DNA from: a virus
Lineage: Duplodnaviria > Caudoviricetes
Strand: one strand, 5' to 3'
DNA: 64,000 nt
Virus record (IMG/VR): IMGVR_UViG_2833692911_000002
Location: 2,332 to 66,331 of that record
A model generated the notes under the pieces. That model was not told where the DNA came from and did not search any database. It worked only from the letters and a program-made list of their open reading frames with translations. The first letter of the stretch is position 1. Each line of letters starts with the position of its first letter. The position numbers and the translations under genes were made by a program. Shown here piece by piece: positions 4,218-4,386 of this stretch.

Positions 4218-4351
4218 AAAAAAACGAAAAAGGGCGTAGTGAGCCGGCACCACCCGTAACTCCGCCCTTTCTCCGTACTAACACGCCGAGGAGACCTTCG
4301 CCGAAAGGCGGGATCAAAGCGCGTATTCCATATCCGCCACCACAGCGGACA
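4218..4351 (-). ncRNA. Candidate three-hairpin antisense sRNA
   Basis: Own promoter TTGACA(4386-4381); three hand-folded stems with G-U pairs only on the minus strand; loops UGUGGUG, UCCUC and GUGGUG; U-tract after last hairpin. Confidence 0.7.
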
Positions 4352-4357
4352 GCCAAC

Positions 4358-4386
4358 CTCCTACACAAATTTGTAGGAATTGTCAA
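4358..4386 (-). promoter_or_regulatory. Promoter of candidate sRNA with ACAAATTTGT operator in spacer
   Basis: TTGACA-17-TAGGAG (weak -10); palindrome at 4365-4374. Confidence 0.55.

Follow-up and report, generated by a model that had tools for sequence, protein, structure and literature searches.

A conserved structured RNA in the immunity region of a 16-3-like provirus is predicted to pair with the leaders of many early genes

The DNA analysed here, a stretch of 64,000 nucleotides (nt) from a member of the Caudoviricetes (positions 2,332 to 66,331 of IMG/VR record IMGVR_UViG_2833692911_000002, a provirus record of 66.3 kb; hereafter the window), carries a similar two-part leader in front of about 18 early genes. 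Its immunity region holds a minus-strand element, at positions 4386 to about 4214, in which a promoter, a three-domain fold and a U-tract terminator were recognized by sequence reading and RNAfold. The locus raises the question whether a single small RNA (sRNA) of the phage addresses the leaders of a whole early regulon, as had been proposed in a preliminary description made from the sequence alone. To our knowledge, the phage immunity RNAs described so far (c4, sar, P4 CI) act at one site or a few. At a probability of roughly 0.62, we favor the reading that a trans-acting sRNA pairs with the early leaders and blocks their translation, in a c4-like manner but with many targets. Within this reading, direct pairing between RNA and leaders is well supported by the sequence comparisons described below, and both translational repression and a role in immunity are likely.

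Early-gene leaders and the complementary RNA

The leader consists of CACCAC(A), a spacer of 1-7 nt, GAGGAGA(C/U), another 3-5 nt and the ATG, and was found before about 18 genes when all occurrences of CACCAC were listed. CACCACA occurs 18 times in the window compared to 5.92 +/- 2.57 times in shuffled sequences, none of 100 shuffles reaching 18. Upstream of start codons, exact GAGGAGAC was counted nine times and GAGGAGA[CU] 14 times. The genes behind these leaders have early functions, namely recombination, replication, a sigma factor, a methylase and nucleases, and no such arrangement was seen in the structural module (about 28-48 kb), apart from a distant and imperfect copy before the major head gene. 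The spread of 57 kb that had been attributed to the regulon reflects the prophage layout in the window, where both ends hold early genes. Five distant relatives, among them Rhizobium phage 16-3, each gave 13-22 matches to CACCAC-N(0-10)-GGAGA, and the reversed control gave 0-1. Just 5' of many CACCAC leaders we observed hairpins with differing stems and the loop C(C/G)ACCAA, which could offer the GUGGUG loops described below a third, loop-loop contact, or could be processing sites.

Re-reading of the minus strand located the -35 hexamer TTGACA, hairpin 1, the segment GUCUCCUC, the loop of hairpin 3 and the U-tract exactly where they had been placed before, and the three domains originally drawn by hand correspond to the architecture of the minimum free energy (MFE) structure at -54.0 kcal/mol. 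The transcript is predicted to start near 4352, which would yield an RNA of about 135 nt extending to about 4218 from its own promoter. Its three domains would display, all single-stranded, the loop UGUGGUG, the internal-loop segment GUCUCCUC and the loop GUGGUG. In the RNAfold structure GUCUCCUC lies largely within the internal loop of domain 2, and mean unpaired probabilities were 0.57 for loop 1, 0.54 for GUCUCCUC and 0.75 for loop 3, with 0.37 for all positions. Fold and leader listing together confirmed that the exposed segments are the complements of CACCAC(A) and of the GAGGA part of the leaders, GUCUCCUC representing an anti-Shine-Dalgarno (anti-SD) segment. The 3' end has the GC-rich stem followed by a U-tract that is typical of rho-independent terminators; the U-tract is missing from many relatives of the RNA.

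We propose that the displayed motifs act in trans and base-pair with both parts of the leader, CACCAC(A)-N(1-7)-GAGGAGAC, of about 18 early genes, the GUGGUG loops providing a second contact, to CACCAC, that would set the phage leaders apart from ordinary ribosome-binding sites. As such pairing would cover the Shine-Dalgarno core, the ribosome should be shut out and the whole set repressed; base-pairing sRNAs that cover the Shine-Dalgarno sequence block binding of the 30S subunit. Calculated duplex energies added little beyond the motif counts, since in this GC-rich genome they separate the 20 CACCAC leaders only moderately from 145 candidate starts (means of -14.1/-16.4/-14.4 and -10.4/-12.8/-12.3 kcal/mol, respectively).

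Relatives of the repressor encoded next to the element were found in 29 IMG/VR loci, 26 of which contain the element at 75-96% identity (blastn) and two more a diverged copy (alignment). A pattern search for hairpin 1 returned 70 loci. Of these, 45 (referred to as hallmark loci) have TTGAC upstream and, 78-98 nt downstream, another GTGGTG; the CTCCTC core is also present in 42 of the 45. The remaining 25 loci have none of these features. Among 120 loci listed, five were picked by a filter, giving the element in at least four Rhizobium or Agrobacterium genomes (L123, L148, L151, L158), and the fifth (L174) turned out to be a false pick. Members were defined by a GUGGU-type loop in hairpin 1, an anti-SD that precedes the closing strand of domain 2, a GUGGUG loop in hairpin 3 and an adjoining repressor gene. 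The window RNA shows all of these and forms the first row of the alignment (MAFFT) and of the covariance model, which were built on 43 distinct sequences. The model recovered the element in four of four genomes known to hold it and gave matches in 12 of 151 sampled Rhizobiaceae genomes at an E value up to 0.01; after their alignments had been read, six matches in five genomes were accepted. Another six matches of 17-18 bits (L237-L242) were not counted, their hallmark motifs being missing or unresolved. A scan with free loops produced 50 loci, six of them new, and only one of the six (L224) is a family member. By these sequence criteria, the element is a family in 16-3-like temperate phages of the Rhizobiaceae.

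Across the 43 sequences, the invariant columns are those of loop 1 (UGUGGUG), UAUGGAA, the anti-SD core, AGUACG and loop 3 (GUGGUG), and the stems are variable. Little or no variation was seen in the two loops and in the anti-SD GUCUCCU, of which G60, T61 and C65 (alignment numbering) are invariant and C62, T63, C64 and T66 nearly invariant. Stem co-variation was measured on the 12 pairs that could be registered in the plain MAFFT alignment (515 counted cells). Here, 98.1% of the cells were paired compared to 80.3% after shuffling, and the covariation score was 0.427 compared to 0.117, neither value being reached in any of 500 shuffles; sliding the partners by 1-3 columns gave scores of 0.03-0.11. 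Compensatory changes occurred in seven of the 12 pairs, including the outer stem of domain 2. The closing pair of hairpin 1 is C-G in 23 sequences and A-U in 18, and the apical stem of hairpin 3 appears as CGG/CCG, CGA/UCG, CAG/CUG or CAC/GUG. Its outer stem, which cannot be aligned by sequence, takes 23 forms of 11-24 pairs, all of them around loop 3. Taken together, the enrichment of CACCACA, the conservation in dozens of related phages and the invariant loops and linkers between variable stems indicate a feature beyond chance, and we are highly confident that a conserved structured RNA is real.

The strand on which this RNA functions also had to be considered. If the plus strand were the working one, the segment would be a leader-like or decoy part of a rightward transcript from about 3835, the minus-strand fold would merely be a bidirectional terminator, and the co-variation would reflect membership in the leader family. 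The plus strand does carry CACCAC, GAGGAGAC and CACCACA, a promoter-like site and small open reading frames (ORFs) run into the hairpin, and the convergent layout is shared with 16-3. However, no start codon follows the plus-strand GAGGAGAC, the motifs are 40 nt apart, the -35 element of the minus strand is conserved, the window has a minus-strand U-tract, and the plus strand folds less stably (-40.5 compared to -54.0 kcal/mol). In addition, 77 of the 515 cells are G-U pairs that would become A-C mismatches, which by calculation would lower pairing from 98.1% to about 83%. The claim that the minus strand is the folded RNA was thereby upheld, and a plus-strand function appears very unlikely.

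Changes of RNA and leaders across lineages

RNAs with altered motifs were recovered by the covariance model search and by a scan in which loop 1 was left free, and 40-60 kb were fetched around five of them; leader counts refer to motifs followed by a start codon. Where the RNA carries GUCUCCUC, in the window and in G156, leaders with GAGGAGAC number nine and seven, respectively, and this motif was counted once in G029, not at all in G025, three times in G109 contig 2 and six times in G136. The RNA of G025 reads GUCUCUCC, and leaders with GGAGAGAC occur ten times there and 0-1 times elsewhere. In G029, with AGCUCCUC in the RNA, GAGGAG[CU]U leaders were found seven times (0-3 elsewhere), and in G109 contig 2, with CUCCUCGUGU, leaders with ACGAGGAG were found 15 times (0-2 elsewhere). 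With the window as reference, p values in Fisher tests were 3e-6 for G025, 5e-5 for G029 and 7e-4 for G109 contig 2; they are only rough, as the leaders of one phage are not independent and, in the G109 test, the two motif classes can overlap. The expectation that RNA and leader sequences co-vary across related phages therefore held in three of the four lineages with an altered anti-SD (G025, G029 and G109 contig 2), and failed in the fourth, that of G136 and G160.

Changes in loop 1 pointed the same way. CACCACA is rarer where loop 1 is altered, with three copies in G109 contig 2 (GGUGGUA) and six in G029 (UUGGUA) compared to 14-25 where the loop is UGUGGUG. UACCACC reaches its highest count in G109 contig 2 (seven compared to 1-5 elsewhere), and ACCAA leaders are most numerous in the two lineages with variant loop 1 (nine and ten compared to 0-5 elsewhere). 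All five host genomes have one 16-nt motif in common, which we take to be the 3' end of the 16S rRNA; being the same throughout, it indicates that the leader changes do not follow the ribosome. In G025, G029 and G109 contig 2, leaders flank the RNA divergently on both sides, as they do in the window. As RNA and leader signature change together in related phages, the RNA probably switches the early genes off as a group. The earlier claim that one RNA gates the whole early regulon is supported to the extent that leaders co-occur with the RNA in five distant relatives and have altered along with it in three of the four lineages with a variant RNA; the repression itself we infer.

The matched changes also bear on the idea that the conserved loops are binding sites for a protein or some other host molecule, their complementarity to the leaders being incidental. 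The invariant linkers UAUGGAA and AGUACG, for which no leader complement was found, suggest that part of the RNA serves another purpose. Nevertheless, if there were no direct pairing, it would be difficult to account for three independent cases in which RNA and leaders changed to match, so that we regard purely protein-directed loops as scarcely credible. That the two linkers pair with leaders as well was considered and dropped, as their complements are not enriched in the window. A small ORF starting at the conserved AUGGAA was likewise rejected because its length varies and indels of 1 nt occur between groups.

Co-variation indicates pairing and not the sign of its effect, and the RNA might instead activate or stabilize the leaders, for instance by shielding 5' ends left by processing or by bringing in another factor; the hairpins preceding the leaders would suit such a role if they mark processing sites. 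However, the predicted pairing covers the Shine-Dalgarno core itself, whereas known activating sRNAs pair upstream and thereby free the ribosome-binding site. Activation is accordingly judged improbable, and repression remains our preferred reading.

Position in the immunity region and proposed role

The element follows, at a distance of 25 nt, a repressor-like gene (ORF 4411-5040; 5013 is the likely start and is preceded by AAGGTGGA), the product of which matched phrog_4 (E = 1.3e-8) and gave no match in Pfam. A second repressor gene at 3199-3777, encoding Peptidase_S24 and HTH_3 domains, is on the same strand. The RNA gene is thus flanked by two repressor-like genes that share its orientation, and the lytic transcripts run the other way. 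In the window, early genes point away from the immunity region in both directions, and also in 16-3, G025 and G156 the RNA is located at the divergence of the leftward and rightward early operons, adjoining a repressor homologue. One family member (L085) is identical to phage 16-3 (DQ500118). There, the element sits between p070 and p069, directly downstream of the former, and adjoins Pr, OR1/OR2 and the C repressor gene, and the predicted RNA of about 135-145 nt would run from about 37026 to 36882 (complement); p070 is a helix-turn-helix (HTH) protein with 47% identity to the window repressor. The 16-3 record has no annotation on the element and no RNA annotated directly downstream of p070.

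From this position and strand, we propose that the RNA is mainly a factor of lysogeny or superinfection immunity. A promoter-like site on the plus strand (TTGAC at about 3837), with repeated ATCGCATAA, is located beside the S24-type repressor gene and is followed by two small ORFs (3937-4080 and 4137-4259). As the second ORF ends inside the terminator hairpin of the sRNA, a transcript from about 3835 would meet the sRNA head-on; the convergent order Pr, p069 and RNA is likewise annotated in 16-3. Such a rightward transcript, from a promoter controlled by a C-type repressor, would include a perfect complement of the RNA, which it might neutralize on induction.

Several observations weigh against a repressing immunity RNA, in addition to the roughness of the p values. 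The fold of the single sequence is not significantly stable (z = -1.58; 16 of 200 shuffled sequences were at least as stable), a scan of 3500-5200 for E. coli-type promoters returned no site, and the -10 element of the sRNA promoter is weak; the case for the RNA rests on the comparison with relatives. Each pairing between RNA and leader is short (6-8 base pairs), and the GGUC part of the anti-SD is paired in the MFE fold. The complementarity of CUCCUC to any strong Shine-Dalgarno sequence is partly trivial, and only the flanks and CACCAC are specific. G136 and G160, which share the identical RNA GACUCCUC, do not fit: their lineage has 11 GAGGAGA[ACU] leaders and only two of the predicted GAGGAGU[CU] leaders (p = 0.58). 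In elements with the L233-type RNA, few leaders were present in the sequence fetched, with only two matches in G109 contig 4. G163 has the RNA and no match to the leader pattern; as the RNA lies 2.4 kb from the end of the record, this genome was set aside as uninformative. Finally, the palindrome ACAAATTTGT of the sRNA promoter is also that of the early promoters, and the RNA may be co-regulated with its targets rather than made in the lysogen.

The last point leads to a reading with the same pairing and a different role, in which the RNA is induced together with the early promoters and shuts off early translation later in lytic growth. The palindrome occurs in four exact copies in the window, at 4365, 5037, 14223 and 56751; apart from the sRNA promoter, these lie in three early promoters at 5031, 14217 and 56745 and are likely operators of one repressor, judged from their sequence. 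In many relatives, moreover, the sRNA gene has the early-type promoter TTGACAAATTTG. On the other hand, the RNA gene is oriented like both repressor genes and against the lytic transcripts, and in the window its palindrome is in another register, within the spacer and not over the -35 element, so that regulation may differ. We consider a late shut-off function possible but rather doubtful. It would make the RNA a counterpart of RegA of phage T4, a protein repressor of translation that targets the ribosome-binding sites of many early mRNAs; in both cases one phage factor would act on many early mRNAs, the factor being an RNA here.

As to the immunity role that we prefer, the closest parallel is c4 of phages P1 and P7, which is processed from a precursor by RNase P. 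According to two papers, the loop sequences of c4 pair around a ribosome-binding site and block translation, and matched changes in RNA and target set immunity specificity (PMC12197685, PMC8198154). The RNA described here resembles c4 as a structured small RNA of a phage immunity region, in 16-3 beside the annotated C repressor and operators, whose loops are complementary to the ribosome-binding region of the targets, as judged from fold, leader listing and co-variation, and whose specificity appears to shift by matched changes. In contrast, c4 acts on a single operon (icd-ant) downstream of its own gene, whereas about 18 dispersed leaders on both strands are concerned here, and the RNA gave no match to the C4 covariance model of Rfam, which covers c4 of P1/P7 and P4 CI. 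With no model match and with many, dispersed targets, we place it outside the c4 family.

The CI RNA of phage P4 is an immunity factor as well, which pairs with short repeated targets and causes premature transcription termination at few sites. The present RNA shares with it the use of short repeated target sequences and differs in that these are Shine-Dalgarno leaders; a match to the Rfam model is again lacking. One-to-many regulation by CU-rich anti-SD loops is known from the alphaproteobacterial AbcR1/2 and the NfeR1/alpha-r14 "cuckoo" RNAs, and an exposed CU-rich anti-SD with many targets is also found here. These RNAs, however, are encoded by the host and target host mRNAs for transport and metabolism, they lack a second GUGGUG/CACCAC address, and their Rfam models did not match the element. 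Whether it belonged to a family in Rfam had been left open in the preliminary description. No match was obtained at the window locus, either at the gathering score or at E values up to 10, or in the loci of six relatives at E values up to 1, and no Rfam family covers the element. Full-text literature searches did not find this RNA family described, and the passages drawn on from a review of phage sRNAs contain no such RNA (PMC12197685).

A single RNA thus appears to address a whole early regulon via a tag in each leader, an interpretation supported by natural compensatory changes. The lysis-lysogeny switch of a widespread group of rhizobial and agrobacterial prophages would thereby gain a post-transcriptional level of control, and the RNA/leader system would offer a compact, programmable translational switch for many genes. 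In the model phage 16-3, the RNA is also a candidate for one component of immX immunity. The overlapping p070/p071 pair of 16-3 resembles the two overlapping cistrons named in the title of the immX paper by Csiszovszki et al. (2003), and we take it to be the immX cistrons; immX was reportedly described as protein-coded. As a tentative extension, one might envisage an RNA-based immunity code, in which the two-part address of every early cistron is read by one master sRNA with two kissing loops and an anti-SD. RNA and addresses would diversify jointly in each lineage, the pairs defining immunity groups as with c4 in P1 and P7, and at induction the rightward transcript under control of the SOS-sensitive C-type repressor would read through the sRNA gene and act as a perfect sponge, freeing all of the regulon together. 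Such a code could be the unexplained part of immX immunity.

Feature coordinates and neighbouring genes

The positions of the sRNA gene and its parts, of the leaders and of the early promoters are compiled in Table 1.

Table 1. Features of the predicted sRNA gene, the leaders and the early promoters in the window
Feature	Position	Strand	Basis or remark
-35 hexamer TTGACA of the sRNA promoter	4381..4386	-	Sequence; TTGAC upstream in 45/45 hallmark loci, 0/25 chance matches
Palindrome ACAAATTTGT in the promoter spacer; likely operator, common to three early promoters	4365..4374		Exact copies counted
-10-like hexamer TAGGAG, 17 nt after -35	4358..4363	-	In relatives TAGACA, TAAACA or TAGGGA at equal distance
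Hairpin 1, GUCCGC-UGUGGUG-GCGGAU; loop UGUGGUG (4344-4338) = complement of CACCACA	4332..4350	-	MFE fold
Single-stranded linker AUAUGGAA, conserved	4326..4333	-	UAUGGAA invariant in 43-sequence alignment
Domain 2, outer stem AAUACGC/GCGUGUU and inner hairpin; anti-SD in internal loop	4280..4327	-	Fold, compensatory outer-stem changes
Anti-SD GUCUCCUC = complement of GAGGAGAC	4288..4295	-	Conservation, unpaired probability, leader co-variation
Linker AGUACG, conserved	4274..4279	-	Invariant in 43-sequence alignment
Hairpin 3 and intrinsic terminator; long stem, loop GUGGUG (4253-4248), U-tract (~4231-4214)	4214..4272	-	Fold, co-variation
Leader CACCAC..GAGGAGAU..ATG, gene resembling a recombination directionality factor	5097..5120	+	
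Leader, HTH-like gene of 116 amino acids (aa)	5545..5567	+	
Leader, 66-aa gene	7384..7410	+	
Leader, Sak4-like annealing protein gene	7905..7927	+	
Leader, SSB-like gene	8862..8883	+	
Leader, polymerase processivity factor gene	9501..9525	+	
Leader, sigma factor gene	11550..11572	+	
Leader, phosphoesterase gene	14275..14298	+	
Leader, DNA methyltransferase gene	16157..16181	+	
Leader, 157-aa nuclease-like gene	24028..24048	+	
Leader (GGGGAGAC), 314-aa gene	24535..24556	+	
Weaker leader, protease-like gene	56813..56855	+	CACCAC, hairpin, GAGGGGAU
Leader, DNA repair exonuclease gene	57546..57568	+	
Leader, pyrophosphatase gene	59020..59046	+	
Leader, 71-aa gene	2975..3003	-	
Leader, 123-aa gene	2667..2690	-	
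Leader, 70-aa gene	1865..1887	-	
Weaker leader	56473..56496	-	CACCAC, AGAGGAU, GTG
Hairpins 5' of leaders	7357-7379, 9471-9495, 11529-11543, 14257-14274, 16121-16139, 57521-57541, 58994-59016		
Near-identical early promoters TCTTGACAAATTTGTAAAAA-N-GT(T/A)TAG, each with palindrome ACAAATTTGT	5031-5068, 14217-14254, 56745-56782	+	

Within the family, the G156 copy (L235) has an insertion of 79 nt within domain 2 and retains both loops and GUCUCCUC. The G109 genome harbors two copies of the sRNA (L233 on contig 4 and L243 on contig 2) with differing anti-SD flanks, as expected if RNA types define separate immunity groups. A scan for further AGCUCCUC-type RNAs gave 15 loci, all of them in a protein-coding region and none a member; the genus of G029 was sampled by that genome alone. 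Comparison of 3000-6000 with the phage collection by megablast gave no match, and sensitive blastn of 4150-4450 against phages gave only two short and weak matches, to Agrobacterium phage Milano and to RHph_TM3_3_14B. The former pairs the hairpin 3 region (4220-4280) with a short, unannotated stretch of Milano (MK637516.2, 53139-53200) at 79% identity.

Antisense to the repressor-like gene, the plus strand contains an ORF of 159 aa (4447-4926) that gave no family match and mirrors the overlapping pair p070/p071 on opposite strands of 16-3. Further downstream, at 22029-22142 (+), the alphaproteobacterial sRNA family ar35 of Rfam (RF02346) was matched with 45.9 bits at a gathering score of 45. 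This segment folds with a z of -2.07, has a 3' hairpin resembling a terminator and may thus represent another sRNA of the phage. In addition, the phage has three tRNA genes (Met, Thr and Pro) at 25634-26089 (+).

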